Positions 1 to 52,486 of a stretch of 64,000 nucleotides of DNA are shown here, in pieces (within the stretch, counting starts at the first letter, position 1; the number at the start of each line of letters is the position of its first letter). Made by a program: the position numbers and the translations under genes. The stretch is from positions 7,622,587 through 7,686,586 of the forward strand of contig CM120648.1 of assembly GCA_051362555.1 (NCBI GenBank), written 5' to 3'. Under the pieces are notes generated by a model. The model worked only from the letters and a program-made list of their open reading frames with translations. It was not told the origin of the DNA and ran no database searches. This stretch comes from Lingula anatina. Taxonomy: Eukaryota; Animalia; Brachiopoda.

Positions 1-1271
1 ATAAGAAATAATGAGTTTGTCGACTGAAGCACAAGCACACCATCTGTCCCTGTTGAAAAGGTCAAACAAGCAGCTAAGCAAGATCCTTGTTTTCCGTGTA
101 TTATACAAGAGACAAGGACTGAAGTTATTTTAGGCCATATCACAACGACATTCATGGATAATAATGGTTTCTGTGGAGTAATAGGCTCAGTGTCTTTGTT
201 CTAGCCTAAGAATTCCTGCTGTATCAGCTATGATTACATTGTAGATGGATAAAATCTGTGGATTAAATCTGGTGAATAGGACGGATTTAACGTTCATCAT
301 AATGTCTGAATATGTCTGAGTGGCAGGCTATATTGTTATGAAATGAGACTGCCTCAGTAGCAGTGCTGTGACAGTTCTAAAGGCCTTCCTACAGTCTCAG
401 AGCCAAGTGCTAATTAGGCCCTGACCTGAATATGGCATGCCTATATGGAAGGAAGACTATTTAATCCTGTAATTTGATTGAAAATTGAAAATATGCCCCC
501 TCACCACAATAACGGTATGGATTTATATTTGTATACCAATATAAACATGGAAAAATATGCTTTTATGTTTGTATTAATTATGAATTAATTGATGAAAAAA
601 GGCAAAGAATTTATTTAAAAAGTGAGAAAAGTGGTCGTTTCCTCAGTATAGATTCAGGCATTGGTGAAATAACACTTTTTTTTTGACTGATTGTACAATC
701 TGAAAAACTTGAGTATATCACTTTCTCTTTTCAGATTAGAAAGGAAACATTTAAGGAGAATTTTTGCTGTCCATTGAACCAGCTTAGAGCGAGCCACCAC
801 ATAGGATAATAGCTGCGTTCTATAGGGCAGTCCTCACTCAAAAAGGCAGTGGCAGGAACTCAATTCAGCTTGATTTTATCATTTTAAGAGGAAAAAAAAT
901 CCTCCTGCAACTCATTTTGCTCTTTTGTCATTCTTGCCAGACCAGAGAAAGCAGCAAAAGAGTTACTCATAAGAAAAAAAAGGGAAATAATCTACCACAT
1001 AACTCTAGGCACTGGCATTCCTCTGTAGTGATACAAAGTTCTGTAGGGTGGTAATTTTTACAGAACAGGATTTGAAAGATTTTAACGTTAAGTAAAGAAG
1101 GGTGATTTTTTAAGAGGTGATACTGGACCACCATCTTCACATTGAAAAACAGAGCGTTTGCATGTGCTGCATAACACCCTTCTGTTTCACAACCAAAACT
1201 TTTCGTTGGTCAAGTTTTGCCTTTTTAACGGCCTCATCGTGGATTGGATGCCGTATCCCGACGCCAGACCA

Positions 1272-2603
1272 ATGAACATGGGCCAGAAGGTTTCTGGGGG
1301 CGTTAAGCAAAACGGGCGTGAGCCCTCCTATAGAATTCCATATGAGATTGCTTATAACCCTGACTTCCAAAAGCCCAGTCGATTGGATGTTCTACTGGAC
1401 ATGCCTCCTGCGCCGCTTGAAGTCCAAAACCAACAGGCGTGGAATCCGGACGATAGATCATTAAACATATTTGTCAAAGATGATGACAAGTTGACATTCC
1501 ATCGGCACCCCGTCGCACAAAGCACGGACTGTATACGTGGTCGCGTGGGTTACACCCGCGGGCTTCATGTGTGGGAGGTGGTATGGAGTGCACGACAACG
1601 TGGCACACATGCAGTAGTAGGCGTAGCCACGGCCGATGCTCCATTACACTGTGTTGGTTATCAGTCACTTGTCGGGAGCAACTGCGAATCTTGGGGATGG
1701 GACCTCACGAGAAACAAACTCTATCACGACGTAAAGAATAATCCCAGCGTAACATATCCAAATATTTATAACTCAGACGAAACATTCACTGTTCCAGACG
1801 CTTTCTATGTGGTGTTGGACATGGACGAGGGAACGATGAGTTTTATTGTCAATGGCCAATACCTTGGAGTGGCATTTCGTGGTTTAAAAGGAAAGAAGCT
1901 TTATCCTATTGTCAGTGCTGTGTGGGGACACTGTGAAATTACACATCGATACATTAATGGGCTAGATCGTAAGTATTCAAACCTGGGAACTTTTAAGCAT
2001 TTCTTCCCAGCAACAGGAATTTGACAAGTCATTAGTCAGTGACTAATACTGTTGTGTATTAATTATAATATGGGTGAAAATTTTGAGTTATTGCAAGGAA
2101 ATTCTTGTTCTATAGGAGTTATGAAGTGAAATATGTTACTTCATGTCAGATGAGAAAAATGTTTCATTTGAGTATTTGCTATCCGTTTGAAGTTCATTTT
2201 TACAATGGTGGCAAGTCTATATGTTAAATGACTTGAAAAACCTCTTGGTTTGGAGCAAATTCAATTGTTACTTAGTATGTTTGAGGCTATTTTTAGGCAC
2301 TTACATCAATGATACACTGTGATAATCTCTTTCTACAACTGAATACTTTTTCCATGTTCTGATATGAGCTTATTTGATTTTTCATTTCATTTTTGAATCT
2401 TTTTCAAAACATTCATGCCTTAAAAATGAAAAATAATACCCTCTTAAATTTTCAATTTTTGGATTTTTTTTACAGCAGAGCCACTGCCCTTGATGGACAT
2501 TTGCCGCAGAGTAATACGACAACAACTGGGAAAAAATAGACTTCCAGAAATTGAAAAACTGCCCCTTCCGACCCCACTCAAGCAATATCTTCTCTATCAA
2601 TGA
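1272..2603 (+). CDS. SPSB1: SPRY domain-containing SOCS box protein (SPSB1/4, gustavus ortholog); join(1272..1968,2476..2603)
   Basis: [11 protein letters not shown]-terminus and SPRY/B30.2 domain ([14 protein letters not shown]...GLHVWEV...[13 protein letters not shown]...SWGWDL...[14 protein letters not shown]). GTAAG donor at 1969 and TACAG acceptor ending 2475 join the SOCS box [19 protein letters not shown]...[14 protein letters not shown]. An in-frame ATG at 1248 could be the start. 5'UTR acceptor at ~734; AATAAA at 5958. Confidence 0.95.
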
Positions 2604-11636: not shown

Positions 11637-12068
11637 TTAATAGCCTGGTGGGTCTTGCGGTTTTTCTATCGAGTGATGAGGAGAAGCCGTTTCCACATTA
11701 TTACTTGGCACTGGTTGGTCAATGTTTTCATATGGTCCCTTTTGGCCTAAAATCAAACGTGTGCTTTTTTATTTAATAGAATAAGAGATGTGTTATTGAG
11801 TTTTATATATTATTAATTGTATAAGTAGTTTATATTGATATAATCTAACAAAAATGAACTGGGTAGCCAGGTCAGCTAAATATTTAAAGGCATATTCAAC
11901 ACATTTTTAAATATCAATTTCCTACCAATAAGTTTGTTAGTTTAATTCCAATACCCAAGGTTAAAATAAAAAAAACTTAACGGTTAAAAACATAAATCTA
12001 CATGTACACAACAAAAATAGAAACACAATGTCTCTGTCTTTCTCTGTGACACAAACATCCTCACACGC

Positions 12069-12130
<62 letters not shown>

Positions 12131-13533
12131 CTTACCTCCAAATCCTGGGAAGTTGGCAGCATCCAGGCCGGGGATGTTCAGGTCCCCCATGCTGCCCCCC
12201 CTCTCCTGGTACACCCTGTACAGCATGAAGCAGGTGAAAGGCTTAATCAACAGGTTCAGAATGGTCATACTGTGGGGATGTTAAGGTGAATTTTTTTTTC
12301 TTATTTTATCAAAAAAATAATAATGATAATAATGTAAAATATAGCATCACTTTTCTTTTCATTTCAGAGATGAATGTGGACTTTGACATAAAATATATCC
12401 TGTAAATTCAAGATCCAAGCAGCTCAAGCTCAAAAGAGGAGCACTCCCCCCCCCCCCCCCCCCCCAAGAAAAAAAATTAAATAAATAAACCTTCCTGGAA
12501 TACTTTCCTCTCTAAAATTAAAATAAAAATCCATTTGATAATTTAATACAGTGTTCGTAACTACATGAGTCGTATCCATGAAAAGTCATATGTAGAAAAC
12601 CTTAAGACCACTACAATAGTGTATGCATATTTTTTCAACTCAAATATTATCAAACAAAAGTTCAAATATCAAAGTCAGTGTTAACCCATGTTACACAAGA
12701 TATCATGATGGAGCTGCAACAGATAATTTAATTCAACAACATCAGTTCCTTAAATTATTTTATTCTCCGACTTTTAAAGGATACCCCAGGGAAAACCTGT
12801 ATGTGTTCTTCATTGTCCAATCTGAAATTATTAACTGAAATGTTTATATCAAAATTATTCATTTCATGATCATCATTTCACTTACTCAAAGATTCTTGTC
12901 TCATCTTTATTTTAATTCTCTATCTAGATATTATTTTAGTATATATACAGCCGCATTGCATGTTATAGCAAAATGTTGTAAACATCAACCAGATTGTTGA
13001 AACTAGTCCTCTTTTTCATGCATTGAAATTATCAAAATATGCAAAAAAATAAAAATAAAAAAAAAGACAACAAATGACTTGAAATTCTTAACTTATTCAT
13101 TTTTAAGGCATCAGAAATTAACTCTCCACTTTTCTATGATCATATGATAGTTAAGAACTAAACCAAAAAGAAATATCTGGATAAAAAAAGGTTATTGATG
13201 TTGTTATCCAAAAAATACATGTGGCCTTAAATGTTGCTTAACGTTGCCAGTTGTTGGCACATTATCACATGTTAGTTGGGATTATCATGAATGGCCATCT
13301 TAATTGTGTTAGTTGTGATCATACTGTTATCATAATAAACTGTGTTAGCTAGGTGTTAAACACAGGAAAGGTACACTGTTACATATACTAGTACAGGACT
13401 TTTGCAGCAGATCTATTGTTTTAGTTTCATTTATATAAGGGAGTATTTCAACATCCCTTTTTATTGATATAATAAATGTTTCTGTTAACATCTAGTAACA
13501 AATATATAAACAACTGCATTAATAATTGAAAAA

Positions 13534-13583
<50 letters not shown>

Positions 13584-14799
13584 ACTCCCTTACTATTATA
13601 TGAAGCATTTTCATACACTGCCCTGGCTGCTGGTTCAAACAATCCCAGACACACTATATCCTGCAGTATGCTGAACATCATTAGCACCATCAGCTAAAGA
13701 AAGGCAAGACAGTATCATCAGATTAGTACATCATAAACACTGGCTCATCCAGGTTGTCAAGAAAGAGGAAATGGGGTGGGGCGGGGTGATCAAAAACTGC
13801 CCTGATATATTTGTACACTGAAATTGCCCCTGTGTACGGTTTTATCGTTATTTTGCCAAACTATAAGCAGGGGAAAAATAAACACATAAATAAATAAATA
13901 AACAAATAAATATATAATTGGTGTGCCTCCTTTCCCCTATAGCCCAAGCCTGGATCAGCCAGTGAGACAGGGATATATATTACAGTAGATATATATACAG
14001 GGATATATATATTATAGTAGAAATAACATAGAGTACATTCCCATAAACACCATAGATCTTCATGGATCGACCCAACTCTGCATAGATTCTTGCTGAGTGC
14101 AACCAGTTCACGTTGGAAACAAAAGGAGACATGTCATTCAATTAAGCTGATTGCACTAAGCAGGAGTCCCTGCAGAGTTGGGTTGATCCCTGTAGACAGA
14201 TGGTGCCTTTATGGGAATGGGGTCATAGTCAGATCACAGCATGCATTTCAAGCTTGTTTGATCTGGGACTGCTTTCACAAAGAATTTCAATTTATGATAA
14301 TTTTTAGACCAAAATTTTTGTCGGTTCTTTTGTGCAGCAAGCCCCAGAGAAGACCAAGGCTCACATCATCATTAATAATAAATTATTTACCAAGTGAAAA
14401 CAACTTTTCCATAAATTATTGAATTTCACTTTTGGACACGGGAAACAAGAACATTTTTTATCATCCTCAACAATATTCAATTAATTCAAAAATTTTTCAT
14501 TTATTAAAATTTTCCGCCAAAATTACACACACTCAAAGTGCCAAATGATGGTGAGCTTGGAGCTTAGCTATATGATCTGTATATGGAGCTTAGCTATATG
14601 GCCAATATAATTCTTAACTTCCACACTGAAATTCATATTACCTAAAAAGCATGCATAATTTTAAGGCCTGTTTCCATTTGAGATACATTGACCAAACTAT
14701 TTCAGCTATTCTGACAAGATTTCCAACCATAGAAAGTCTGGATCTAAACTCATACTTACATCAATCAAATTGTGACTGGGGAAAAAAAGGTGTGTGTGT

Positions 14800-14830
<31 letters not shown>

Positions 14831-16047
14831 GGGGGGGTGACATGAGCATAGGTTTCAGGAATAAAAAAAAAAAACAACTAAACATTAACAGTGGGACCAA
14901 ATGTCTAACCTGTTAGAACCATCAGAATTGAAATACAAAACGGCCAAATTCCATGATTCCACAGAAAATGTTGGTCGGGCCTCCTATGGTTAGAAATAAT
15001 CATCCCTGCAGCTGAGACAGTGTTATTACAGTCTGATGGAAACATGCCTGTCCATTTATCTTCGATGGTACCCTTATCTTACCCTTATACAAAGGTGTTT
15101 CATACAAGCTATCAGCGGCTGGTTGAAATATTCCTAAGAATATGATATCCATAAGAATACTCAACGTGTTCATGACAAAGTACTGTAAAACAAAAGTGGC
15201 AAAAATCATAAAACTCACATTCATGATTCTTAACTGAGATTCGATGTTACAGTTTTATGGTTATTTTTTTCATTCAGCACTGTAGGTCCCAAAAGCTGAA
15301 ACTGCCTTTACCAAGCATTGATTTTACAAGCGTGTAAAGGCACAAACCTTTATTCTAAGGACCCATTCTTTTTCAATCCAGTTGAAGACTGAAATATATA
15401 TTATATCACAACCCCCTATCTATAACTTTGTAAAACACATAAATTTAAATTACAAATGCTGGGGTAGCGCTAGCACTTTTTTTCACTTAGCCAGATCACC
15501 ACATTTTTGTCAATTTGTTATCAAAATGGTTATAATTTGGCTAAAACAGCTCAAATCAAGCCCTTTTTCTTTAGCCAATTTAAGTCAGTTTTAGCATTTG
15601 ACTAAATTGGTGAGTGTTAGCGCTACCCCAGAAATGCTTGGTATAAAATGATGTGCACAGCGTGCACCAAATAATATCCATTCCAAATGGATGAGGAATC
15701 TATTTCCCGGAAGTTTGCACAGACAGATTTGCATGCATTTGCAAGTGGAAGCACAAAAATCAATGTCATCTGCAAAGTATTGATTTTTAGACTATGGTTA
15801 GAACTGTGGCTGACATGCTTTCTGTGCATTTTCTAATGAATCCTGATAAAACAATGTTCTTCCGCCTTAATTCCAAGCCTTAATGTTCTGAATAATTGGA
15901 ACTGCCACTACCAAGTCATAATGTATCTTCACCAAAACTGGATTTAAGTAAATACTGTAGTTATAATGCAATAACAATATAGACATTGATTTTTTATGAT
16001 TCCCAAATTTTCCTCAATGACAGATTGAGTCATTACCATATGGTATT

Positions 16048-16141
<94 letters not shown>

Positions 16142-19100
16142 CTGGGACCCTCGAAGCACCTCACTGTCATGCCACTAGGCAGTATAACCATGCTGTCATT
16201 ATAGCTATAATTACTTTAACAGCCTAGTGACCTGTTTCAAAAAAGATCTTTTACCAGTAAGTTTTTGGGCTTAGCTAGCTTAGACTAGTAAACCTGGACA
16301 GCAAACTACTAGTACTTAAAAAAGACTTATATTTATTTGTTTGTTTATTTATTTTTTGAAACAGGCCCTGGACATGCACAACCAATACAGTAACATAAAT
16401 ACATATTACAGTTCAACCTTACCAATAATACTGCCTCTATGGACTCTGTATTTATAATAGCCAGAACCCCAACAAATGTTAGCCCCAAATTCATATACTG
16501 ATATGATGGAGACTGGAAGTCCACTAGTAGCGCCCTGAAAGCACAGCATATACCCAAAAAGCATTAATACCAGCCCTAAGCACACACATACACATATACT
16601 AATATGCTCCAAACTGCTGCACCCTGAGATGGACAGCACAATTCTTCTTTTGTTAGTCCCCAAGCTGTTATAATATATACTGGGTAAAATGGAGACTGGA
16701 ACATGGTTAAAATATTGAATGCACCCTGAAAAACACTGCATGGATATAATATGTAGCAATTTGCAAAATATAAGGTATGTTTAATATACAAGTGAGCACT
16801 AAGTAACCCATTATGCGTTCCTACAAAAGCATCAAGTTCATTGTATGACCCATCTAACACCTAACATGTTCTCCTGCTGGGTTACTGGCAAGCAGAATGG
16901 TCCCATGCTGGGTCAATGGCAGACAGAAAGATCCCATGCTGGGTTACTGGCAAGCAGAATGGTCCCATGCTGGGTCAATGGCAGACAGAAAGGTCCCATG
17001 CTAGGTTACTGGCAGGCAGTATGGCCTCATGCTGGGTCTGGCAGCTAAAATGGTCCCTTGCTAGCTCACTGGCAGACAGAAAGGTCCCATGCTAGGTTAC
17101 TGGCAGGCAGAATGGCCTCATGCTGGGTCACTGGCAGGCAGAATGGTCCTATGGTCACTGGCAGCCAGAATGGTCCCATGCTGGGTCACTGGCTGACAGA
17201 AAGGTCCCATGCTAGGTTACTGGCAGGCAGAATGGCCTCATGCTGGGTCACTGGCAGGCAGAATGGTCCTATGGTCACTGGCAGCCAGAATGGTCCCATG
17301 CTGGGTCACTGACAGGCAGAATGGTCCTATGGTCACTGGCAGGCAGCATGGTCCCATGCTAGATGACTGGCAGGCAGAATGGTCCCATGCTGGTCACTGG
17401 CAGACCGCATGGTCCCATGCTAGATCACTGGCAGGCAGAATGCTCTCTTGCTGGGTCACTGACAGACAGAATGGTCCCAGGCAGAGAGAATGATCCAATG
17501 CTAGGCCACCACAAGATTATCTAACATTATTCCAATCAACTGTTCCATGCATTTAGTAAATATATATTTTGTTTTCTGCATGCAAGCCTGCCACCCCAGT
17601 CTACTGCAATCTGAACTCACCAAATGTATGGCTTCTACAGACTTATAAAATATTATTGCCATGCTCCCAACAACTCCCATTACCATATTCATATAGTAAT
17701 AGGAATCGGGGAGGTAGTCTTCGGCCATTGTGGCCCTGAAAATAGATCATGGTTTGTAAACAGAAATAATGTACAGAATGTAGGTCAATGAATGAATGAA
17801 AATAATGTGTTGAAACACGATCAATTATCTGAAATAGAAATTATGTCAAGATTACCAACAATTTCCATTGCCATCTTTCATATATATATTATAACTAGAA
17901 AAGCACTCCGAGACCTCCGCCAAGGCAGCAATTTTTGATTATTATTGATTGAAAAATATTGATTGATTATTGATCCGGATCACCACCATAACTAATCATC
18001 TCTTCCTTGGCCCACTTCTGACAGTTCCTAAAAATTTCATCAAAATCTGTCCATAACTTTTTGAGTTATATTGATGACAGACAGACAAACAAACAAACAA
18101 ACAAACAGGGGTGAAAACATAACCTCCTTCAGGAGCAGATCCAGAGATATTTTCTGACAGTATTCCAAATTTTCTTTGTTGATACATCCTCCATTTCTGA
18201 TGGTGTCCAACAGAAAAAAAAATTGATACCCGTCAATGTAAACTTTAAAATCTGACCGTCTTCCAGAAGACCCAGAAGATGGTCTCAATCTGCCCCTGAC
18301 CTCCTTGGCGGAGGTAAAAATCTGAGAGATGGTCCGGTGGCTGTCACGATGACTCTGAATTAACAGATAGGTCAGCAAGTATCTCGTTTATCATTTCAAG
18401 TCACATATAAATACAGAATTATTCACTGACATGGCAAAAGCATTAGTTAGTTCTTAGAATGACTTGATTTGGACTGAGAAAGAAATTTTTCTCCCAAATT
18501 TGCCTGAAATTGAGATCATGTCCCCAACTCTTTGGTCCCATTGAAGAAATAAGCTACAAATATGATGTCTCAGATGAAATTAAACATGTCTAAATTAATG
18601 AAATGGGAATATGTAAAGAAACTAATGTAATAGTATATATCATTATAATAAGAAATATGTTATTGAATAGATGTTTATCACAATAATATAAAACATTTTC
18701 TAAATTAATTTTTATAAATGATATTCAGACCTCTGGTTGGTTTGATAAATTTGTGGATTTTGACTAAAACCATGCTGGATTTGTCAACTTTTGTAAAATC
18801 AGAAAAAAATGAACAGAACAATTATATAAAACTTATTAATATATCATGACATACAATTAAAGGTCCCACTTACCATGTTGTAAGGATAAAATGGACAATC
18901 ACAACAACCTGAAATAAAAGAAAATTGTATGAGTAAAGAAATCTTCTTATCCCTTCAACATCATTCTGATATTTATCTACATATTAACACAAATTTTCCA
19001 TAGAGAAAAGATTATGAAAATTCTCCAAATTCATGAATTATTGAACTTGATGTTCTATTCTATTTTTAATTTTAAATTCATAAATTTTAATCACTGACCA

Positions 19101-21383
19101 GTCATTTAGATTGACATTTATCTTTACTGAGAAAATGTAACTTTGGAAAGTTTTTCAAAAGTGTACAGTATACCTTTTACATGATATTAATCAAGACCAG
19201 TTCAATGTCAAGATGATGAAAAAAAAGAAAAAATTACCAAAACACAATGACTATAATTCTTCAAATATGTCTTGGTAAAGCAGCTGTTTGATTAATATCT
19301 TCAAAGTAAAGGGTCTGAACTTGATAACTTTATAATAAATCATAAATTATAATATGTCAAAAAGTCAAAGGATTATAGTCTGACTGGTCATACGTTAGTT
19401 TAATATGGTCGTATATAATATCCTGACACTTCCCTCGAGGTTACAGACAAAAATTGGATAAATTTGTTTTTAAAAAATGCTGTCTGGGTCCAACCATGTT
19501 ACGATTATCCTGAACAATAAATTATAACAGTGTAAAGCAGTGCCAAGGATTCAGTACTCTATGTCATGGGATTAAAATAGCCCACACAGTCAGGCTACAA
19601 CCCAGAACTTGATGATTCCACTTAAAAGGCAGTTCCAATCATGCCAAGTCATCCACCTAAATGACACTTTAGCATGCTGGATGCCATCTATGATGCTCTG
19701 CTTGCCTTTTACACTTCATTTTTTACTTCCTACACCATAAAAAAGCCTAATAGAAAAATTCACTTATCAGAAGAATTAATTTATCTCCAAGGTAACTATT
19801 ATAATTACAACATGTAAAATAGAATACCCTGTATGTACCTAGTTTTACCTTCAACCTTCTTTGTATTTGAATAATAAGCTGTAACTAGGCACTCTTCAGG
19901 TCATTTAACGACAGATTAGCCACTTTACTGTGTGTGCTTTTTTTCTTTTTAATCAGATTTGGCCAAAATTTTGAGAAGTGTTTATTTTTAACATTTAATC
20001 CCCTAATGCTTTATCTTTGCAGATATTGTTCTTTATAGATTAGATGCAGTTTTAATTTAATTTATTAATTTCTTAAACAAAATCAACATGGTGATTATGG
20101 CAAATCTTCAAAAAGAAACTTACCTTTTGAAAAGAATGATGAAATTAACAAAACATAATAACCATCACTTTTTAATACATCAATGGTAAAGCAGCCGTTA
20201 ATTTTTTTTAACCAAAGGTTTGAACTTGAAAACTTCATAATAAATCATAAAGTAAAACATGAGAAAGGATAATATACTGTCTGGTCATGTGTTAGTTTAA
20301 TATGGCCATATATCATATCCTGTCACCCCCTCAAGGTTACAGACAAAAATCTGATTTCTGATTTAAATTGAAAAAAGTGCGTTATCTAGATGTGTTTTGT
20401 GAACTTGTTCTTCAACCTTCTGATGTTTATATTTTTTCTCTTGTGATGTTATTTCAGGTATTATGTGACTGTATATCACAAAAGATGCATCGCTACATAT
20501 GCATGATAGATTTTATTCACATAAGACTGAAACAAAAAAAAAGTAAAAACGGGCCTAGCTAGCAAAAGAATACTCATCATGGCACTGTATTTTCTTGCTG
20601 ACTCAAAAGACACTGCATCAAATGACAGGCAAATAAACAGAAGCATGTCCTAAGCACTGCAAGCAGTCCATGTGATATCTGTATTTTGCTTAGGTCATTC
20701 TTACAGTTAAAACCACTGCAAATGCAGAGAGCATTTCATGAATTGTGGGCAGTCTAATGCACTCTTCTTCAACCACCTTGATGGGCAAAAATAATGATAA
20801 AGATTTCTATGATGCTAACAACTAAAATCTCCAAAATTAAAGGGGAGAGTTACCGTGCCTTGAGCTGCACCTCTTGATGACTTTACTTTAAGACTGCCCC
20901 TACTGTACTTTATATTACAAGGACAAACAAAATGAGTAAATTGAGAATTCTACAGTAGTATACAGTAGCCGGGGCTAAGACACAATCAAATACCAGTCTG
21001 CGGTAGCATCAGTCACATTCATCCTTCACATACAATTACTAGTCTGACAATGTCATTTTCAGTAATAAAACAATTTCGGGTCTTCATGCACAATCAACCT
21101 TTAAATGCAGCTTCTACATGATGCATGAATATATATAATCACTAGAGTGACCAAGTCAAATAATGCAGAAATAAATCTGCAAGACTTTGTAACGTTATGA
21201 CATATATGATTTGTTCTGATTGTGACGCTTTTAAAAAGGTTAACCCGGTTGAAATGGCCAAAGCAAAATACGGCAATACGCCCAAATGTATTAAACTAAA
21301 CACTTACTAGCATTCATACATCAATATGTCTGTGTAGGCTATATATTGCATCTCACCTTTAATGTCAATTGCGGTGTATTCAT
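11637..21383 (-). CDS. AGTRAP: Type-1 angiotensin II receptor-associated protein (AGTRAP)-like. Exons: 21357-21383, 18874-18908, [17621-17735 or 16423-16534], [15083-15182 or 13594-13693], 12785-12821, 12136-12269, 11637-11746
   Basis: All introns are GT-AG with compatible phases. Translation MNTPQLTLK|VVVIVHFILTTW|...SxEA|...SILxDI..LG.F.P...|...TYRFSLG|MTILNLLIKPFTCFMLYRVYQERGG...|GQKGPYENIDQP...GY* matches the recalled AGTRAP pattern (LKVI..HWLLTTW...RFGVGMAILSLLLKP...YRERGG...YQTID). Confidence 0.9.
13594..13693 (-). CDS. AGTRAP: AGTRAP alternative exon 4b (100 nt)
   Basis: CTTTAG acceptor, GTAAGG donor; encodes LMVLMMFSILQDIVCLGLFEPAARAVYENASYN. Confidence 0.85.
14036..14225. mobile_element. 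Palindromic MITE family M2
   Basis: CATTCCCATAAA...TTTATGGGAATGGGGTC termini with internal inverted GCTGAGTGCAA/TTGCACTAAGC; related sequence at ~31600-32020, ~35670-35850 and ~56030-56255. Confidence 0.7.
15083..15182 (-). CDS. AGTRAP: AGTRAP alternative exon 4a (100 nt)
   Basis: TTACAG acceptor, GTAAGA donor; encodes YFVMNTLSILMDIIFLGIFQPAADSLYETPLYK. Confidence 0.85.
16051..16140. repeat. (TA)n microsatellite
   Basis: Read directly from the sequence. Confidence 0.95.
16423..16534 (-). CDS. AGTRAP: AGTRAP alternative exon 3b (112 nt)
   Basis: TTTCAG acceptor, GTAAGG donor; encodes (W)ALLVDFQSPSYQYMNLGLTFVGVLAIINTESIEAVLL. Confidence 0.85.
16874..17480. repeat. GC-rich ~31-bp minisatellite in the intron between AGTRAP exons 3a and 3b
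   Basis: About 20 variant copies of GCTGGGTCACTGGCAGGCAGAATGGTCCCAT. Confidence 0.95.
17621..17735 (-). CDS. AGTRAP: AGTRAP alternative exon 3a (115 nt)
   Basis: TTTCAG acceptor, GTGAGT donor; encodes (W)ATMAEDYLPDSYYYMNMVMGVVGSMAIIFYKSVEAIHL. Confidence 0.85.
17893..18320 (+). mobile_element. Short HINE-like element interrupted by an M1 MITE
   Basis: AACTAG start, subterminal inverted ACCTCCGCCAAGG / CCTTGGCGGAGGT, (ACAG)(ACAA)n microsatellite, and 3' hairpin ACCTCC-TTGGC-GGAGGT. Confidence 0.75.
18130..18298 (-). mobile_element. MITE family M1, copy 2 (nested, 8-bp TSD)
   Basis: Reverse-complement homolog of 6449-6604, flanked by ACCTCCTT at 18122-18129 and 18299-18306. Confidence 0.85.
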
Positions 21384-23273: not shown

Positions 23274-24781
23274 ATGGCAGCCAGTAGAATGTGTGTGCAA
23301 AGCCTCAGGGTGACCTGTAGAACAAGTAACATACAAGGTGAGGTATTAGAGACCATTCCCACAGACATTTAGATCAATCTATCCTCCTGGGAAGTCTCAC
23401 TAGATTGCTGTCAGCTTAACCCGCTTAAATGTCTGTCCCGCCTACTAAAAGCTGTAAGGGGGTAATAAAGTGTTGTGCACACTCAGCTCCCGGAAGCTGA
23501 CAGCAATTTAGCGTGGCCCCCAGGGATGGATCGATCTAAATCTGTGGGAACCCAGTCTTACACACACTGGTGGGCATCATCCACTTTTATCAACCTTTTC
23601 TCAAGTCTATAAAGAGTAGACTCTTTCCAGACCCCCCCCTTCAGACAGTATGAGCTTAAGATGAAGACCTTGGACAGCAATTTAGCTCATTTTTTATTGT
23701 TTTTTAAAAGCATACAGAGGGCATTTAACTTCCCCCCCCCCTCCCAAACCAATGGTTCACATTGTAGACCCTTGGAAATGTTAATACAAATGGATGATCC
23801 CTGTAAATATATATCTGCATACAATTTTTTTGTTGTTGTTGTAGCAATGGACTGTCAACATTAAATCTATAATATTTTCTAAGTAACATCAATGTAATAT
23901 ACTTGTAAATGTTATGACTGTTACAATAATCTTTGCAGTGCTTGATCTCTCACCTAGTGCTTGATTAACTTTACTCCATCTATGCTGACATTCACAAAAC
24001 AAATACAGAAACCATATTACCACCCTTTTGCAGGAATGTTTTAAAACTTCTGTACAAAGATTTTAATTGCTTAAAATGTTTCTAGCTTTTCTAGATAATT
24101 TTATCTGTAAACAGCACTGAGACGGTAGTGTAGTGCGATTTTAAGAAATAAATATTATTTTTTTTTTTCTCTTCTAATTCAGCATTGGTCCAAATACAAC
24201 CACCTACCATTGCAAATGGGAACTATTCAGCATCATTTCAACAGCTAGGATTTGGTGCCAAGGGCAATAGTAAGCCAACAGCTGTAACTTTAGGACAGAG
24301 CACGGCATTTAAACTGCCATCACTGGACAGCAACAAGTTTTACAAAATAGGTATATTAGATCACCATCAACCCAGTTGGTATGAGTTCCCTACTTTAGCT
24401 CATATGGGGTCTGTCTTGGAGAAAGAGGCTCCACCTTTAAATGAAAACGACTTTAAAGGTGATCCCATGCCTGATGAGGCAACTGTAAGAAAGGAAGCCA
24501 AAAGAATTCAGAAAATACGCAAACGCAGGATAAGAGGTCTCCATTTTAAAAAGAAAAGGAAAAAGAATGGAAGTATAGTTCGTGCTTTACGGATCAGGAA
24601 GCGAGAAAAGCAGGCAGCAAAAATGAAGGAAGAGTTTGCAGCCATTTTGGAGTCGGCAGAAAGGTTTGACCCGTGGGGAGAATTGCAAATGAAAACTAAA
24701 GACTTCAAGAGACTTAGGGTAAAGATGCCGTCTGCTTATAAGGATCTTTATAAAAGGATTCATCAAGTTAGATTACAATGA
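23274..24781 (+). CDS. AURKAIP1: Mitoribosomal mS38 / Aurora kinase A-interacting protein-like; join(23274..23337,24183..24781)
   Basis: Presequence-like N-terminus MAASRMCVQSLRVTCRTS and a phase-1 GT-AG intron. Highly basic helix AKRIQKIRKRRIRGLHFKKKRKK...RIRKREK...AILESAERFDP resembles the mS38 (DUF1713) IRRRKMxxHK region but is divergent. Confidence 0.65.
23355..23552 (+). mobile_element. Palindromic MITE family M3, copy 1
   Basis: TTTAGATCAATCTATCC...GTCTCACTAGATT...TCCCGCCTACTAAAAGCTGTAAGGGGGTAAT...GATCGATCTAAATCT; also at 29836-30050 and 55820-56025. Confidence 0.8.
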
Positions 24782-27254: not shown

Positions 27255-30141
27255 TCAGTGCAGAGCTCGCCGACATCTGTATGCCAGGTAGTACCAAGGA
27301 CTATGACTGAACTCTGCCGGGGCCCTGTACGTCTGTATATTTACCCTAGGGTTGAGTTTAGAGTGCTTGCTATACAGCGTGTAGATCACTTGCTGGTCTG
27401 TGCTCATCAGGACTGAAAAGAAAGGAAAACACGATGAACAAAAAAAAAAAAAAATAATAAAAAAATAAATAAATAAGTAAAAAATAATAATAATAACTTG
27501 TTAACTTTTCTTTTCTTTATCAGATAAACGGTATTTCATTGAAGAGACCGTATATTGGATTTAATTTTTATGGTAGGGTTTTGCTTATGCAGTACAATAA
27601 TACCATAGCGTGAAATTACTACGACTTCTAAAAGTAACTTTTACATGATGTGAAAATAAATGGAACGGCATGCAACTTCTCCAAAGACCTCAGTCAATTA
27701 AAGAAGTATGCGTTAAAAGGTAAATGTACCAGATTTCTTTTAGTTTTTAATTCTTTGCAGAGATCTTTAACAAGTACGATACTTAGGAATGATAATTTTT
27801 TAGCTAACTAGCAGAATTAAAGTTATATTATTAATCCCTGTCCTACATTTATAATAATTGTTCTATTCTAATTGCTACGTTCAATTAATGAGTCTGTATT
27901 ACATATCGAAATGGCAACACTACTTGTAATGGCCAGAGTACAATATAGTAATTCTTGCAATTTTCGCGTTCATGGTAGGGGGAGGGGGTCAACTTAAATA
28001 ATTTTACACTGTTTGTCTTACAGTGTTTAATCATCCAGTGCACGCCACGCCGGTAGTCAGTACACAATGTCTGCACTGCCTCGACCCGCCCAATAAAAAA
28101 CGCCCCAACTACCCACACCATATCCAGATACACGATGTTCCTTGGGGTTGGATTTGAATTGGCCTCGATCTCGGTATAAGCCACGTGGCCGTCAATGACG
28201 TCATTGGGTATGCCAACTTCAAACCCTTCTCCTGGAAAAGAGGAAACCTTCAGTACATTTGCTACCTTAAAAGCATGTCACATGATGTAAAATGTATAAA
28301 ATGGATTCAGAGTTATGTCTTTCTAAAATTTTGATAAAACACTTTAGCAGTTGTCGTAAATATATAGACAAAATTAAGCGCTATGTCACTGCAAGAAGAT
28401 AATAAATTACACCTTCTTCGTTTCTCCATATGCCAAAATCCATCCAACACACGTGGGTTGTGCGCACGCGGCCACTTTTGATGGCGTCAGCCATAACTTC
28501 ATATTTGGCGTGCATGGCCACTGAATAATTGGCGTTGATCGTCTGCGGGTGGTACTTAGGGTACCCGACTTGATTAAAAATCGCCTGGATTCTAGGTCTA
28601 AGCCCAAACGCCCAAGAGTCATTTATATTCATTATGATAACATCTGTTTGTAAAGACGGTTGATATGAGCGTCGGAAGAACGTAATTTGTTGTGCTATTT
28701 CTGGCGAATTTGTGTAGAAGATTAAAGGGTTCCGGACCATGGCGATTTTCCCAGCGTTCTGTTGGTAGAAATCCTCCCTACGCAGCAATGTCCCCTTGAT
28801 GAAATTACCCAGGCTAAAAAACGCGGTGACAACGGTGACATTTTTGACGTGTTCGACGGGAAGTTGAATGTCACCAGATCTCCTCTGAAAAGATTCTCCT
28901 TTACTGAGAAATTTTCTAATTGCTATGTCCTTTTTATTAGTTCCGGGTTCCTTACATCGTTGCTCCAGACTCCCATATACCAAGAAAAAGAGTATCTGAA
29001 AATATACGTTTATCTTAATTCACTGATCATCCCCACATTAAACAAAATGTCTGCGTCACTGACTCAAATAAACACTTTTTATGGAATACCACTAATAAAA
29101 GATTAATGCATATTTGCAAACCGGCCGTATACACATATAATATGGTTTCAGATATTCTAAGGTCCTTCCGTTTTTATCTGTTTTAGAAATACATTAGGCT
29201 TATAATGAAAATGAAGTGGATTACCCGATGGTCAAATTAACTTAATTGTTTGTCGGGCAGACGTGGTGATGCACGCAATAAAACAGCACTATTGCTTTCT
29301 ATGGATATTTATCGTCGAGTTTGAAACAGGGAGGTCATTAATTATATTGCAAATCATTTGATTACGGCAATCACATGAAGGTACATGCAGGTCAAGAGTG
29401 CTAATAGACTGGAGCTATGTGGGCGTGATTATGTACTGGTTATCCGAATGGGCATGCCGTTTATTCGCCTGAACACATTGTAATTAATCGATTTGGTCAA
29501 CTATGGCGACCGTCAGTTTATTTTGCCCCCCAAAAAGCACAAAACAAACAGTTATATAAATCGCATTTACTTATATACTATTAGAATCGGCGGAGCTTAA
29601 AGATGGATAGCTTGTATATAAAATGATGTTACGAAGATATAAACTTAAGTCCACTGTGAATTTATTAAAATGCCCCATTGCCGGACAGGGAATGTTTCAA
29701 AAGTGAATTTATTTTTGAACAAGTGAATACACTTGAGATAATGCTTTAACTATCCAAGATTGAGACTTTACTGTTTGACAAAAAGAAAACTAACTTATGT
29801 CCAATACACCACTGTAACCTTTAAATATCTTGCACCCCATTTCCATAGATTTTTAGATCGATCTATCCCTGTGGGGAGTCTCACTAGATTACTGTCAGCT
29901 TGGCCGGCTTAAGCGTCTGTCCCGCCTACTAAAAGCTGTAAGGGGGTAATTAACTATGGTGCCCGCTCGACTGACTGCAATTTAGCGTGAACCCCCAGGG
30001 ACTTAGGTCGATCTAAATCTTAATCTTTAGATCGATCTAAATCTCTGGGAAAGCACCCTTGGTTCCTACCGTTATTAGTAATAACGCTCTGATGAGGCTA
30101 CCCAGGTAATTGCGTGGGCAAACTATTCCACGCCAATCCAT
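27255..30141 (-). CDS. HtrL/YibB-family type II membrane protein, 340 aa; complement(join(27255..27412,28022..28231,28413..28995,30070..30141))
   Basis: N-terminal anchor MDWRGIVCPRNYLGSLIRALLLIT|ILFFLVYG. Motifs VTVVTAFFSLG, NPLIFYT, YSVAMHAKYEVM, WMDFGI, VVGAFFIG and STDQQVIY resemble the HtrL_YibB family (recalled). GT-AG introns in compatible phases; possible 5'UTR exons extend to 30424 and at 32160-32258. Confidence 0.8.
29836..30050 (+). mobile_element. MITE family M3, copy 2 (in an HtrL-like intron)
   Basis: High similarity to 23355-23552 and 55820-56025. Confidence 0.8.
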
Positions 30142-36562: not shown

Positions 36563-38466
36563 AGGCAGAAGCAAAGTTAACGTATGTTAACGTTTTTATT
36601 TCTAAATCAAAAAGGAATAATGTAGCTTATGAATTTCTCCGTCACTGAAATGCTCCCTTTGTGTTTATTGATGTCATCATCCCATTATGACTGTAGCTGA
36701 GTACTCCTCATTTGCCCAATTATACCATCCACGTATTGCTGGGCAGTGAAGCAACGGAGCGTTACTTGGGCTTAGTTAAGACGATCATTTTTTTGTCTTG
36801 GTGCAACGGGCGTAAACAGGGAGAGAAAACCTGGCACACGGACGCCAGGCGTTGCGGTTTACGACGGTCGTATCCGAGGCCCCGTTGGTGCAACCGGGTC
36901 CTGGAGCTTAGGGGATGCTGTCGCGTGATTGGGAATTGTAATCACCTGAGAGCAGGGTGTTGTCTGCCGGAGGGTGGGTTGGGGGGAGTAGTGTCAGTTA
37001 TTAACTTGGTTTAGGGTGCAGGCATTCTGTTTGATATGGATCTCCCCTCTCACGCCCTGCTAAAACATGGGGTTTTAAGAGTTGCATTTAATTTATGACA
37101 CTTACCAAGGTGTTGGACCATGTATAATTACACTGCAATAGCATGTAGCATAAGTGATGGCACTTTGGGGTGCTGCTGCAGTTTAAATGCGCAAAACACA
37201 CAGAAAAAGTATTATCACAAAAATCACACAAAAATTATAAAGATACATTTTACGTAATTTTGGGGGGCCTACCACATTTGATAATAATGTTGCTAGCGGA
37301 TAACCCAACCCCTAAATCTTCTTTCTGTCTTACCTTAGGGGGGGAGAGTAGATTCAGTTTTTCCCTAGGCGTCCTAAAGCAGCTGATAAACTCAACTCAC
37401 TCTCCACATCCCACTTTATGCAAATTTTTTTAAATATATGATTTAATTTTGAAAAGACAGATGTGTTTATCTCTAAATTTGTGAAATTTCATTGTTGGTT
37501 GATTAAATAGCTAATTTACCAGAACCATTAAGCGTGGTGCACTCTATTAGCTGTTGTAGACTGTTTTTCATACAGGTTAACTTCTTAACAACAAGATATG
37601 GAATTCATCTACTAGTTATGGGCCAAATATTGAATAGAATTTTTTTGGGGGAAGGTACGGTATTAGGTACAAGTTTAGACTCAGGTTTTTGATACCCGCT
37701 CCTTTGAATTTCTTGGTCGTCGGACCTAATTGTGAGTTTTGCTAAGTGTTGGTTTTTTTTTCTTTTTTCTTTTTGATATAGGTACAGCTATGTACCCGTC
37801 CACTGTAAAGGGATATTCAAAACACATAACCGATACGTGTGCCATAATCCGTTATATCCTTTCTAGTTCTCTATAAAACAAAGCTTTGTAATGCCTGCCA
37901 AATGCTTCATTTCATTTTCGAGTGAGAACAATTTCTTTGTGATTGATGATAACATGTAGTGTTATAAAGATAACTTAAGTTGCCCAACGGTTTCTCAAAA
38001 TGACAGCCAGACTGATAGACACATTTTTGAATTCTTCAGCAATCCTTTGGAGTGGAGTTCGCTTGACCTTAATGTGCCACAGAGCTTACCGATCCGAGAA
38101 TAAGACTCCGCTGCCAGACAAATCAAGATTCAACGATTTAAGTACACTAATTGGCGTACACACGGATCAATGTTAAAGGGTAAAATACTAAAGTTGGTTG
38201 GAAGACGCACCAAGACAAAATGATGCAATGATTTAAGTCTGGAGATTCAAGATTTGACGACACAAAGATTAGAGCAGGCGTACAGTCAGTTCCAGCTTGA
38301 AAAATTAAGGACTAGGGTAATCGTACCAACGTGTCAAAATTAAGATTGTTTTGGATACGACAGACGTTTTCTCGACAACGGAGTGCCTCAAAGTGATGTA
38401 CAATTCTACATGATTGTAATACCAGTGTGACCGAACTCTTTTTATCTTCGAGCCAAGTATCATAGT

Positions 38467-39141
38467 ATGATTTGCAGGCCTTATTTACGGTACAGATTAT
38501 TCACCCTTCGATGGATCACCATTCTTGTAGTCTTCTTCACAAACGTGTTGATATTTCAGCAAATGGTTCCGCACTTCAACGAGGACTGTTACCTAACCGA
38601 TGTTAAAATCAAGGCCTTAGAAAGAGCAATCACATACGTAATAGAAGAATACGAGCGCTTAAACCAGACCTATTGGCTTGACTTTGGTACTCTCCTGGGG
38701 GCACATCGACACGCGGGTATTCTGAACCACGACGCCGACGGAGACGTCAGTCGCCTTGTTCCGCCATCTTGGACGGACGAAGCCGAGAGAAACTTCATCG
38801 CGGAGCTAACGAAGCGCCTTACCCGTCGTGGATGCACATTTGAACAGGATCGTTCCATTACTTGTCAAGGTGCACATGTTGATTTAGGCCGATGGAAAAA
38901 GGATACATCTGAGACGTATCTGTACCGATACTATCCCCCATACACTTTTATCCTGAAACCTTTCACCCTCCTCCCGGTCGACTTGACCCTTCCGACGAAA
39001 GCTGTGCGTTTCCTTGGGAGGAATGTTCAAGGTCCAGCCAAGGTGAATGAGTTTTTGACTTTCCGGTACCCCACCCAGAAATATATGACTCTGCCGTACA
39101 AGTGGAAGTGCGCCTTTGACAGACGTCAGAAAACACATTGA
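38467..39141 (+). CDS. LicD/fukutin-FKRP-family nucleotidyltransferase-fold phospho-ligand transferase, type II membrane, single coding exon
   Basis: TM segment WITILVVFFTNVLIF; family motif YWLDFGTLLGAHRHAGILNHDADGD, then VDL and a C-terminal FLG...P....FLTFRY. Confidence 0.85.
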   Translation: MICRPYLRYRLFTLRWITILVVFFTNVLIFQQMVPHFNEDCYLTDVKIKALERAITYVIEEYERLNQTYWLDFGTLLGAHRHAGILNHDADGDVSRLVPPSWTDEAERNFIAELTKRLTRRGCTFEQDRSITCQGAHVDLGRWKKDTSETYLYRYYPPYTFILKPFTLLPVDLTLPTKAVRFLGRNVQGPAKVNEFLTFRYPTQKYMTLPYKWKCAFDRRQKTH

Positions 39142-39375
39142 TTGTTTCTTCTCTGCGTCTTTGTACAATCATAAAAGTAATAATCAAATGAGGGCATAAT
39201 TCAAATCGAGGGGTCCAAGGTTTTCCTGTTTGAAAGCAAACAAAAATTTTCCTGTTGACTGGTTTGAATATATTGGATAGAGAACGCTCATGATCGCCTA
39301 ATTACATAAGATAAGCAGACTAAATAACGTTAATTTTAACGAATCTTGAACTTAGGTCAGCAATTGCAGTTGAGA

Positions 39376-40818
39376 ATGATAATGATAAGACATTGGTTTT
39401 GTGGTCATTTTCTCGTTCTATCTCTGTTTTGCGTATGTCTTTACGTTATGAGAATAACTCTAAATACAAGAGCCGTGTCTTTGTGTGGCGGGAACAGGGA
39501 GTGTGTTCAGAAAGATAGATGGCGTGCAGGATCCCCTTGCTTGCACTCCAGTTATAAAGATGACATCAAAGTGAACTGGATGACCCGATTAGGACCCTTG
39601 ATTGCAAAGAAAAAATTAAGCGACTTGATGTTACCTGGAACACACAACTCAGGTTCGTACTCTATCCACAATGCCAGTTACTTAGTGGAACATTTGCTGG
39701 CGTCTAAAATCGCCCAAGTTGTCGCTCCTAGCTTTTTGATAGGCTGGGTCCGTAACCATGACGGCGATTTCTTCTCCCAGCTTCAGGCGGGATATCGCGT
39801 TTTGGATCTTAGGATTTGTGCATTAAAAGCAGGCGGTGATTTCTACTGGTGGCACGGGATCACGGGGAAGGAAATTTCGGAAGGGTTGGCCTTAATTGCC
39901 CGTTTTGCACGAGAGAATCCCAAAGAGCTCATAATATTAACAGTTTCTCATTTAAATGAGCCTGGCTCTATTTGGGGAGCAGCAAAAGTTTCCATGTCGT
40001 CTGCTGCATTACAGAGACTTGGCAAACATCTGTTTCGGTACCTTGGACCTTACCTGTTACCAGTTCGTTATTTCAACGGGACCAACACAGTGGGGAATAT
40101 ATGGAAAACCAAGAGAAACGTTGCAATTTATTTTGACGGGGTAGAACTTAGTTCCCTCGGGTTCCCTCACCTATATCTGTACAACACAGAGCAGCAGTAT
40201 ATCAAAAGTACTTTTGAGTTTAAAACAAATCCGCGTGATGTTTTCAAAAGTAGAGCAAGAATTTTAGCAATGGACAGGATACGTTACAAGAATGATTTAA
40301 CTTACAGCGCTGTAGTCGTGACCCATCAAACAAAAAACCTAATCGGTGCAGTGTTAGGCTTCCAAGCTGTACAGATAATTATTTTGATCATGTTCTGCTT
40401 CTTGAGCATTAATCGTCTGACTAAGAAAAGACTGCCCCGCAAAGATTATGTTTGGGCGAGAACTTTTGGTATTGTTGCAGTGTTTGTGACTTTTGGTAGT
40501 ACTTTGCCATTACTGCTACGCATGGCGCTAGGGTTTGAAGGCTGTGCGAGTACTTTGTTAGAAATGGCACATTTTGCAAACCGCATGGGAACATGCTGTT
40601 ATAACGATGGGCATGTAACCCCCTCAGTCGTAGAGGATAGAGCAATCACTTTCGTTGATATCAGGGATTCCACCAGTGCTTCAGTAACTGGTATAAACTC
40701 TATGTTGCAATATTGGTGTTTAGAGAAGTACGGCTCATACAAATGCAATATTATCACTGTTGATGACTTCCGATCAAGTAATGCTGTAGATGTTGCCATT
40801 AGTTTTAATAAGAGATGA
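39376..40818 (+). CDS. PI-PLC X-domain-containing (PLCXD-like) protein with extra TM helices, single coding exon
   Basis: Motifs LSDLMLPGTHNSGSY, QLQAGYRVLDLRI, WWHG, FARENPKELIIL and C-terminal NIITVDDF; N-terminal hydrophobic anchor. First ATG at 39376. Confidence 0.85.
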   Translation: MIMIRHWFCGHFLVLSLFCVCLYVMRITLNTRAVSLCGGNRECVQKDRWRAGSPCLHSSYKDDIKVNWMTRLGPLIAKKKLSDLMLPGTHNSGSYSIHNASYLVEHLLASKIAQVVAPSFLIGWVRNHDGDFFSQLQAGYRVLDLRICALKAGGDFYWWHGITGKEISEGLALIARFARENPKELIILTVSHLNEPGSIWGAAKVSMSSAALQRLGKHLFRYLGPYLLPVRYFNGTNTVGNIWKTKRNVAIYFDGVELSSLGFPHLYLYNTEQQYIKSTFEFKTNPRDVFKSRARILAMDRIRYKNDLTYSAVVVTHQTKNLIGAVLGFQAVQIIILIMFCFLSINRLTKKRLPRKDYVWARTFGIVAVFVTFGSTLPLLLRMALGFEGCASTLLEMAHFANRMGTCCYNDGHVTPSVVEDRAITFVDIRDSTSASVTGINSMLQYWCLEKYGSYKCNIITVDDFRSSNAVDVAISFNKR

Positions 40819-45046: not shown

Positions 45047-45504
45047 CATGCAGTGCTACCAATGTCGGATTAATTTTACCGCTATTAAAAAAAATCTTTC
45101 TTCCATTTTGTGGAGCACGGTTTTTACGTTCGTGCGGCATGTAGTAAGCATGTTGTGTTCATGCAATGAGAAAAGCCCATCCAGTACGCTAGTACTTATT
45201 TTATTTGTTTACAAGTATTCCAAAAGTTATAATGCATTGTATCCGAATCTGATTATCGGCCCATGAATTACAGATACCGGCATATGGCAGATAGGGCGAA
45301 TTTTTGGCACAAAGCACTCCATGGCTTTTATTTTGTCGTTGACGCTAATGTCAACTCACTTTCTTCATTCATTAACGGCATTATTTCTAAATAATTTTCT
45401 CTTTCCTTGTGATTCTTAATCAGTTTTCATATTTGGCATTTATTGGACGTTTTAGTGACTGAATTAATTAAGTTTTCCCTGTTTTTCAGTTCACCCGCAA
45501 AAAG

Positions 45505-52206: not shown

Positions 52207-52486
52207 CTTTCAGTTTTGTTTTAGAGGGGATGGGCATAAAACGGAAGCATAATGTTTTTTCCTGGGGTCAATAATTAAACTCTCCCATTTACCAAACCAA
52301 TTGTACACCGCTATTTTAATATTTTGAATATATTTCTTTAAAAAGAAAAAAAGGTCTGATTTCCTCAAAATTGGGCACGAAGGGTCGGATGCACTCGTAA
52401 AACCTATCAATTTTGTCTAGCTTACACTCGATATACTGGGGGTACTCTCATGGGCTGAAACTGCACTGAACATAACATTGTGCTCG

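Follow-up and report, generated by a model that had tools for sequence, protein, structure and literature searches.

Two adjacent pairs of duplicated alternative exons in the AGTRAP gene of the brachiopod Lingula anatina

In the current study, we describe the AGTRAP gene of the brachiopod Lingula anatina, which lies on the minus strand of a 64-kb stretch of genomic DNA (the window) and has nine coding pieces (1, 2, 3a, 3b, 4a, 4b, 5, 6 and 7), starting with an ATG at 21383 and ending with a stop at 11637. The gene carries two adjacent pairs of duplicated exons that probably yield up to four membrane proteins of equal length, one exon being taken from each pair and the transcripts that retain both copies being cleared by nonsense-mediated decay (NMD). 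By the features tested, the two pairs belong to the homologous mutually exclusive exons (MXEs). The four-way arrangement is already annotated in RefSeq, since all four combinations are modelled there, and is apparently undescribed in print: searches of the open literature listed no paper on duplicated AGTRAP exons.

Gene identity and coding exons

An exon 6 query matched three proteins at 100% identity, all of them L. anatina RefSeq AGTRAP isoforms, and the fourth isoform was found in the same protein clusters. These models, which are predictions, comprise isoforms X1 (3a4b), X2 (3a4a), X3 (3b4b) and X4 (3b4a), with scores of 130, 123, 131.9 and 124.9 bits against the Pfam AGTRAP family (PF06396; gathering cut-off 25). 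Because they differ from the window at a total of four residue positions, we take them to come from another haplotype. The coding exons, in window coordinates, are as follows.

21357..21383, minus strand: exon 1, coding part from the ATG, 27 nucleotides (nt); matches the RefSeq isoforms apart from T3A
18874..18908, minus strand: exon 2, 35 nt, ending in phase 2; helix 1
17621..17735, minus strand: alternative exon 3a, 115 nt; loop 1, helix 2 and the start of helix 3; present in RefSeq isoforms X1 and X2
16423..16534, minus strand: alternative exon 3b, 112 nt; its 3' end precedes 4b in the reads of RNA runs X1 and X2
15083..15182, minus strand: alternative exon 4a, 100 nt; helix 3 and the following loop, without a sequon; minor form
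13594..13693, minus strand: alternative exon 4b, 100 nt; helix 3 and the following loop, with two N-x-S/T sequons; main form
12785..12821, minus strand: exon 5, 37 nt, phase 1-to-2; not named in the initial annotation
12136..12269, minus strand: exon 6, 134 nt; helix 4 and the start of the tail; Pfam E 1.5e-8
11637..11746, minus strand: exon 7 as far as the stop codon, with the YENID tyrosine motif

Homology and constraint of the exon pairs

Each of the four alternative exons is preceded by AG, followed by GT and stop-free in the expected frame, the exon 3 copies running from phase 2 to 0 and the exon 4 copies from phase 0 to 1. An initial annotation, made from the letters of the window, had given the coordinates, splice sites, open frames, lengths, phases and shared motifs of these exons, and all were found as it gave them. 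Exons 3a and 3b are identical at 66 of 112 aligned nucleotides and 15 of 37 residues, and 4a and 4b at 57 of 100 nucleotides and 15 of 33 residues (57-59% in DNA); for neither pair did any of 2000 residue shuffles score as high. Comparison of exons across the pairs, in four combinations, gave p values of 0.17-0.88, that is, no similarity above chance. The order 3a, 3b, 4a, 4b, together with this lack of cross-pair homology, supports two separate single-exon duplications, as the initial annotation had proposed, and no further copy of exon 3 or exon 4 was found within the 64-kb window. Taken singly, exons 3a, 3b and 4a match Pfam AGTRAP at E 0.016, 2.3e-4 and 0.15, and exon 4b alone has no match to that family; against a profile built from 35 non-Lingula homologues, all four score alike (24-28 bits). 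Thus, the pairs show features of homologous MXEs, being tandem copies of like length and the same phases that match each other and the same part of the protein.

The divergence between copies points to selection on the encoded protein. The ratio of nonsynonymous to synonymous divergence (dN/dS) is 0.47/1.06 (about 0.44) for 3a/3b, taken over the final 33 codons of exon 3; for 4a/4b, likewise over 33 codons, it is 0.47/2.22 (about 0.21), near saturation. Identity between 4a and 4b by codon position is 21, 24 and 12 of 33, a deficit at the third position. In a simulation of neutral copies by substitutions alone, which does not bear on the recent disuse of a copy, an open frame, AG and GT were all kept in about 4% of cases at d=0.5 and in less than 1% at d=1.0. 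Between the two haplotypes, exon 3a differs by one residue, conservatively (V/I). Protein-level constraint on two intact paralogous pairs is therefore supported by these comparisons and by the fit of all four exons to the family profile, in line with the selection that had been proposed for the copies.

Use of the exons in RNA

From nine RNA runs found by species label, four (X1, X2, X4 and X7) were mapped, using about 6, 6, 6 and 25% of their reads, respectively; the mapping covered 12135-16040, with exons 1, 2, 3a and 3b outside this range. Exon 4b was covered in all four runs. In runs X1 and X2, 4a was without depth, and the sequence joined upstream of 4b was the end of 3b (37 reads in run X1 and 31 in run X2, with agreement of 1.0 and 0.98), making 3b-4b essentially the sole form in both. 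Joints from 4a to exon 5 were read 0, 0, 1 and 4 times in runs X1, X2, X4 and X7, compared with 28, 32, 16 and 16 reads for the joint between exons 5 and 6, and 4a was joined to 4b in six reads of run X4 and one of run X7. The end of 4b adjoins an ATT run, and one joint row was lost at a repeat.

In run X7, both exon-4 copies are used, and 4a-5 joints exceed 4a-4b joints by 4 to 1. This run represents a diverged lineage, with at least seven differences in 4b, four of them synonymous and the others conservative (M-to-L and V-to-I), and with an exon-5 end that differs only silently from the window. Use of 4a varies between samples (Fisher p 0.0014 for runs X1 and X2 together against run X7, with reads that are not independent and samples that differ in study and lineage). 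In run X4, reads cover introns in 27 of 30 bins, so this run is rich in unfinished RNA. Both exon-4 copies are thus used in RNA, and RefSeq and sequence constraint suggest that 3a is used as well; of the up to four isoforms anticipated by the initial annotation, RefSeq models four, and RNA shows exons 3b, 4a and 4b.

Exclusion and its possible regulation

Five of the 16 possible combinations of exon inclusion reach the normal stop. Four of them are the forms with one exon from each pair (3x+4y), of 184-185 residues; the fifth joins 3a to 3b without exon 4, reads 3b in a shifted frame and gives 189 residues. This path does not appear among the RefSeq isoforms and is probably due to chance, because one of the eight unused frames is open. 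The statement that including both or neither copy of a pair shifts the frame therefore holds for one pair at a time and has this one exception when the two pairs are combined. Double inclusion of a pair places a stop 200-212 nt before the last junction (212 nt for 4a+4b), and a transcript with a stop at such a distance is an NMD substrate by the usual rule.

The mutual exclusivity first proposed did not prove strict: joints between 4a and 4b were read (six and one). In two runs 3b-4b dominates. Since 4a is joined both to exon 5 and to 4b, exclusivity is leaky, and it is probably policed by frameshift and NMD. Introns of 1086 and 1389 nt separate the copies, and all four donors are of the GTRAG type; these long introns and ordinary donors, together with the 4a-4b joints, rule out steric or U12/U2-enforced exclusion in pair 4. 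Leakage of this kind has precedent in a human survey, where 377 of 629 MXE clusters (60%) shift the frame on double inclusion, 83 of those 377 have joining reads, and clusters that have some joining reads but a frameshift are still accepted as MXEs (PMC5740500). The joining of the two exon-4 copies likewise shifts the frame to an early stop, in agreement with the definition of MXEs used there (PMC5740500).

The initial annotation had also raised the idea of complementary docking and selector sequences in the introns, and no convincing pairing above shuffles emerged among eight intron pairs: the best duplexes lay near those of six shuffles each, and two of the eight beat all shuffles, one narrowly and the other with a 30-nt bulge. 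A long inverted repeat at 14048-14205 was rejected as a docking or selector element, being a local hairpin with read coverage on both strands, like a dispersed repeat. A different lead is provided by RBFOX-type words near the exon-3 copies.

17546..17584, minus strand: two TGCATG (RBFOX-type) words downstream of exon 3a; candidate regulators

These words stand 37 and 70 nt after 3a, a third stands 45 nt after 3b, and none follows 4a or 4b (three seen where 0.5 would be expected downstream of all four exons; p 0.016, judged post hoc). RBFOX-type control of exon 3 is a lead only; the same word helps to select a neuronal MXE in unc-32 (PMC3585155).

Weighing the explanations

In the explanation we prefer, splicing would pick one of 3a and 3b and one of 4a and 4b, giving four versions of the membrane protein, and transcripts keeping both copies of a pair would be frameshifted and removed by NMD. 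The choice would be set by tissue- or stage-specific splicing factors (RBFOX-type words follow 3a and 3b), with 3a being chosen in a tissue that does not predominate in runs X1 and X2, and a swap would change cargo grip or glycosylation while leaving the sorting tail as it is. Several observations weigh against this explanation. Run X4 joins 4a to 4b (six reads) in preference to exon 5 (one read), the 4a read counts are all in single digits, and what precedes 4b in runs X1 and X2 is 3b (agreement 1.0 and 0.98), with nothing derived from 3a. The 4b-5 joint is not among the joints listed, the link being drawn from depth and RefSeq. The exon-3 pair lacks a third-position deficit (18, 24 and 18 of 33), the dN/dS estimates come from 33 codons per pair, and no other brachiopod sequence was identified among the homologues.

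An unlikely alternative is that 3b+4b is the sole working protein and that 4a (perhaps also 3a) serves mainly as a frameshifting decay cassette that tunes the level of AGTRAP, or reflects a splicing leak. Such an account would fit the exclusive use of 4b, with 3b upstream, in runs X1 and X2, the 6-to-1 excess of 4a-4b over 4a-5 joints in run X4, and the stop that double inclusion creates 212 nt before the last junction. A poison cassette, however, needs no conserved protein, yet 3a and 4a match the family profile as well as their twins do, and dN lies well below dS in both pairs. The joint ratio is also reversed in run X7 (4 to 1 in favor of 4a-5), and the opposing ratio comes from run X4, with its intron coverage and unfinished RNA.

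It is very unlikely that both pairs were once functional alternatives and that the recent disuse of one copy, most likely 3a, has yet to end in its decay. The lack of 3a-derived sequence upstream of 4b in runs X1 and X2 would be expected under such a loss, dN/dS is higher in the exon-3 pair (0.44), where change is not concentrated at third positions, and the neutral-decay simulation is uninformative on recent loss; on the other hand, RefSeq models two 3a isoforms, the difference between 3a haplotypes is conservative (V/I), and 3a retains canonical splice sites and is followed by two TGCATG words.

That the doubled exons are an assembly artefact (two haplotypes placed in tandem) or what is left of a duplicated gene copy lying in tandem is highly improbable and largely refuted. 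No direct evidence supports it, the one hint being a weak helix-4-like stretch in intron 1 (13.7 bits). The copies are not alleles, being 57-59% identical, against differences of about 1-7% among the alleles and lineages found in reads. All four exons recur in a second assembly, splice joints in the reads connect 4a with 4b and with exon 5 over the genomic distance, and the order 3a, 3b, 4a, 4b with single exons 1, 2, 5, 6 and 7 does not fit a block duplication.

Predicted consequences for the protein

AlphaFold2 models of 3a4b and 3b4a, which together cover all four exons, have the same four helices (predicted local distance difference test, pLDDT, 84-85) and a low-confidence tail. The helices span residues 3-22, 31-49, 54-86 and 94-127 in the 3a4b model; exon 3 provides residues 22-59 and exon 4 residues 60-92, so that about 70 of the 127 bundle residues (over half) are swappable. 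The exchanged exons are thus predicted to supply helices 2 and 3 and both lumenal loops, with helices 1 and 4 and the tail fixed, and the models bear out the view that the swap falls in membrane segments. An older literature has a three-pass model of AGTRAP. Human ATRAP carries an AP-4-binding tyrosine motif in its cytosolic tail (PMC12519218); if the YENID tail of L. anatina is likewise cytosolic, both swapped loops would face the lumen or the outside.

The 4b forms have two N-x-S/T sequons in the loop after helix 3, one of them made at the 4b-5 junction, and the 4a forms have none there. Whether these sequons are used is uncertain, because the loop is short. Only 3a contributes a YxxΦE word; it falls in the short loop joining helix 2 to helix 3, where adaptor access is doubtful.

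Foldseek returned no match in the PDB at E <= 0.001 and ranked TARPs first, at E 0.26 and weaker. The best structural match was synaptophysin (Z 12.4, root-mean-square deviation 2.6, 124 residues aligned). Synaptophysin, MS4A, synaptogyrin and the TARP/claudin folds share with L. anatina AGTRAP the character of four-helix accessory membrane proteins; the scores are of the size that helical bundles give in general (one made de novo reaches Z 11.5) and indicate no kinship.

AGTRAP exon swaps in other animals

The AGTRAP family reaches Capsaspora, and the description of the protein as an adaptor associated with G-protein-coupled receptors (GPCRs), carried over in the initial annotation, is a mammalian label. 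Among 62 closer homologues compared exon by exon, clean exon swaps were found in L. anatina and in the oyster Ostrea edulis; the other flagged rows were rejected as truncations, between-species Haliotis pairs or, in one case, an unresolved Logan pair. The O. edulis isoforms X1 and X2 (XP_048751380 and XP_048751387; P0011 and P0025) are distinguished by 14 residues, which all fall in 61-93, the part that corresponds to L. anatina exon 4, and a loop sequon is present in X2 and absent from X1. No exon-3 swap was found in the four O. edulis RefSeq isoforms. As judged from these proteins, O. edulis probably carries a second duplicated exon 4 that arose apart from that of L. anatina.

A loop sequon occurs in six of 37 aligned homologues, two of which are the Ostrea and Lingula switch forms, and its presence in just one exon-4 version in both animals has a rough chance of 1 in 20, post hoc. 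In exon trees, which were built on 32 and 38 columns and are poorly resolved, the oyster copies fall among oyster sequences with weak support and 3a and 3b are sisters at 88/85; for exon 4, no tested grouping was rejected (p-AU, from the approximately unbiased test, 0.14-0.28). A broader proposal, in which independent exon-4 duplications in brachiopods and oysters form an on/off glycosylation switch on the lumenal loop, to which Lingula would have added an RBFOX-driven exon-3 switch, producing a two-by-two tissue code for cargo with the sorting tail unchanged, strikes us as quite unlikely. If the second duplication in oysters is true, the exon-4 segment would be a recurring target of selection.

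Logan oyster proteins include mixed exon-3 and exon-4 variants, one pair agreeing at 80% in exon 3 and showing no difference in exons 4-7; they were not used as exon swaps, since species and alleles are inseparable in them. A scan of metagenomes with the oyster alignment gave 227 pattern matches, with no locus confirmed. Isoforms of Haliotis and Ptychodera were also set aside as exon swaps because they differ in the tail only. The Haliotis isoforms (P0043-P0051, P0013, P0017 and P0028) have optional tail pieces of 6-14 residues just before the tyrosine motif, and these pieces, conserved in four species, are likely microexons.

Comparison with known systems

Membrane proteins have more than their share of tandem duplicated exon substitutions, which have originated convergently (PMC9741552), and some genes hold more than one MXE cluster (PMC5740500). 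The homologous MXEs described there and the L. anatina exons have in common tandem paralogous copies of like length and phase, one per mRNA, a frameshift on double inclusion with some joining reads, conservative substitutions and, probably, convergent origin (PMC9741552; PMC5740500). Unlike the surveyed MXEs, the two L. anatina clusters lie next to each other, and between them they exchange about 70 of roughly 127 residues of the bundle. The kind of splicing is ordinary, and what is unusual is the adjacency of the clusters and the share of the membrane domain that they replace. AGTRAP was not found in the main texts or supplements searched of these two surveys (PMC9741552; PMC5740500). Another parallel is C. 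elegans unc-32, which encodes the a subunit of the V-ATPase and has two MXE sets, 4a-4c and 7a-7b (PMC3585155). The unc-32 sets are split by constitutive exons (judging by the numbering) and their regulation is proven, whereas the L. anatina sets abut and have candidate regulation only (PMC3585155).

Mammalian AGTRAP (ATRAP) and the L. anatina protein are both members of PF06396, the L. anatina isoforms scoring 123-132 bits against the cut-off of 25, and YENID in the L. anatina tail is a YxxΦ[D/E] word such as AP-4 binds in human ATRAP (PMC9576747; PMC12519218). Binding to a GPCR tail or to other membrane cargo, with an effect on how that cargo is internalised, is known for mammalian ATRAP only, and the mammalian protein has partners beyond the angiotensin receptor (PMC9576747; PMC12519218). 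Mammalian binding to AT1R or the transferrin receptor is not transferable to L. anatina AGTRAP; partners beyond the angiotensin receptor and a family that reaches Capsaspora both bear on the ancestral role of AGTRAP. No duplicated-exon switch was found reported for human AGTRAP. Ten human MXE supplementary files contained no match to it (a control gene was present in six), and the literature searches listed splicing surveys of human or cattle but no paper on duplicated AGTRAP exons, in agreement with the earlier statement that no such arrangement is known in vertebrates. The O. edulis pair X1/X2 resembles L. anatina in having its differences confined to the exon-4 stretch and a sequon in one version only, but it shows no exon-3 swap, its copies group with oyster sequences, and its exon duplication is deduced from proteins. 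With helices 2 and 3 and their loops exchanged and the tail held constant, the L. anatina forms would offer four matched variants for mapping the surfaces that choose partners.

Other features of the window

Two further features lie in the introns of the gene.

16871..17479, no strand given: intronic minisatellite between 3a and 3b, with a 31-bp unit repeated about 20 times
12270..12784, minus strand: intron 5-6, 515 nt; donor GTATCCTT, with a CCTTAAC word about 10 nt before the AG

The donor (GTATCCTT) and the CCTTAAC near the AG match the U12 consensus, making intron 5-6 a candidate U12-type intron. It is spliced in all four RNA runs; AGTRAP was absent from eight supplementary files of a minor-intron paper, a search with no positive control. 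In intron 1, an open stretch at 20515-20604 (minus strand) scores 13.7 bits against the helix-4 part of the profile, more than exon 2 itself and more than the best (11.6) of 30 shuffled windows, and has no DNA similarity to exon 6; it may be an old relic of exon 6 or a product of chance. The intronic regions 15410-15670 and 14040-14230 attract many reads on both strands with loose ends, that is, they are dispersed repeats, and the element at 14040-14230 is an inverted repeat with 59-nt arms.

Elsewhere, a 492-residue open reading frame (ORF) at 39340-40818 and a 209-residue ORF at 24152-24781 have no Pfam match. Other ORFs match SPRY (1146-2024, plus strand), HtrL_YibB (28381-29019, minus strand), LicD (38431-39141, plus strand), FkbM methyltransferase (45472-46566, plus strand) and reverse transcriptase (52476-53780, plus strand) in Pfam, and several of these neighbouring ORFs are long, single-exon and of families common in bacteria.

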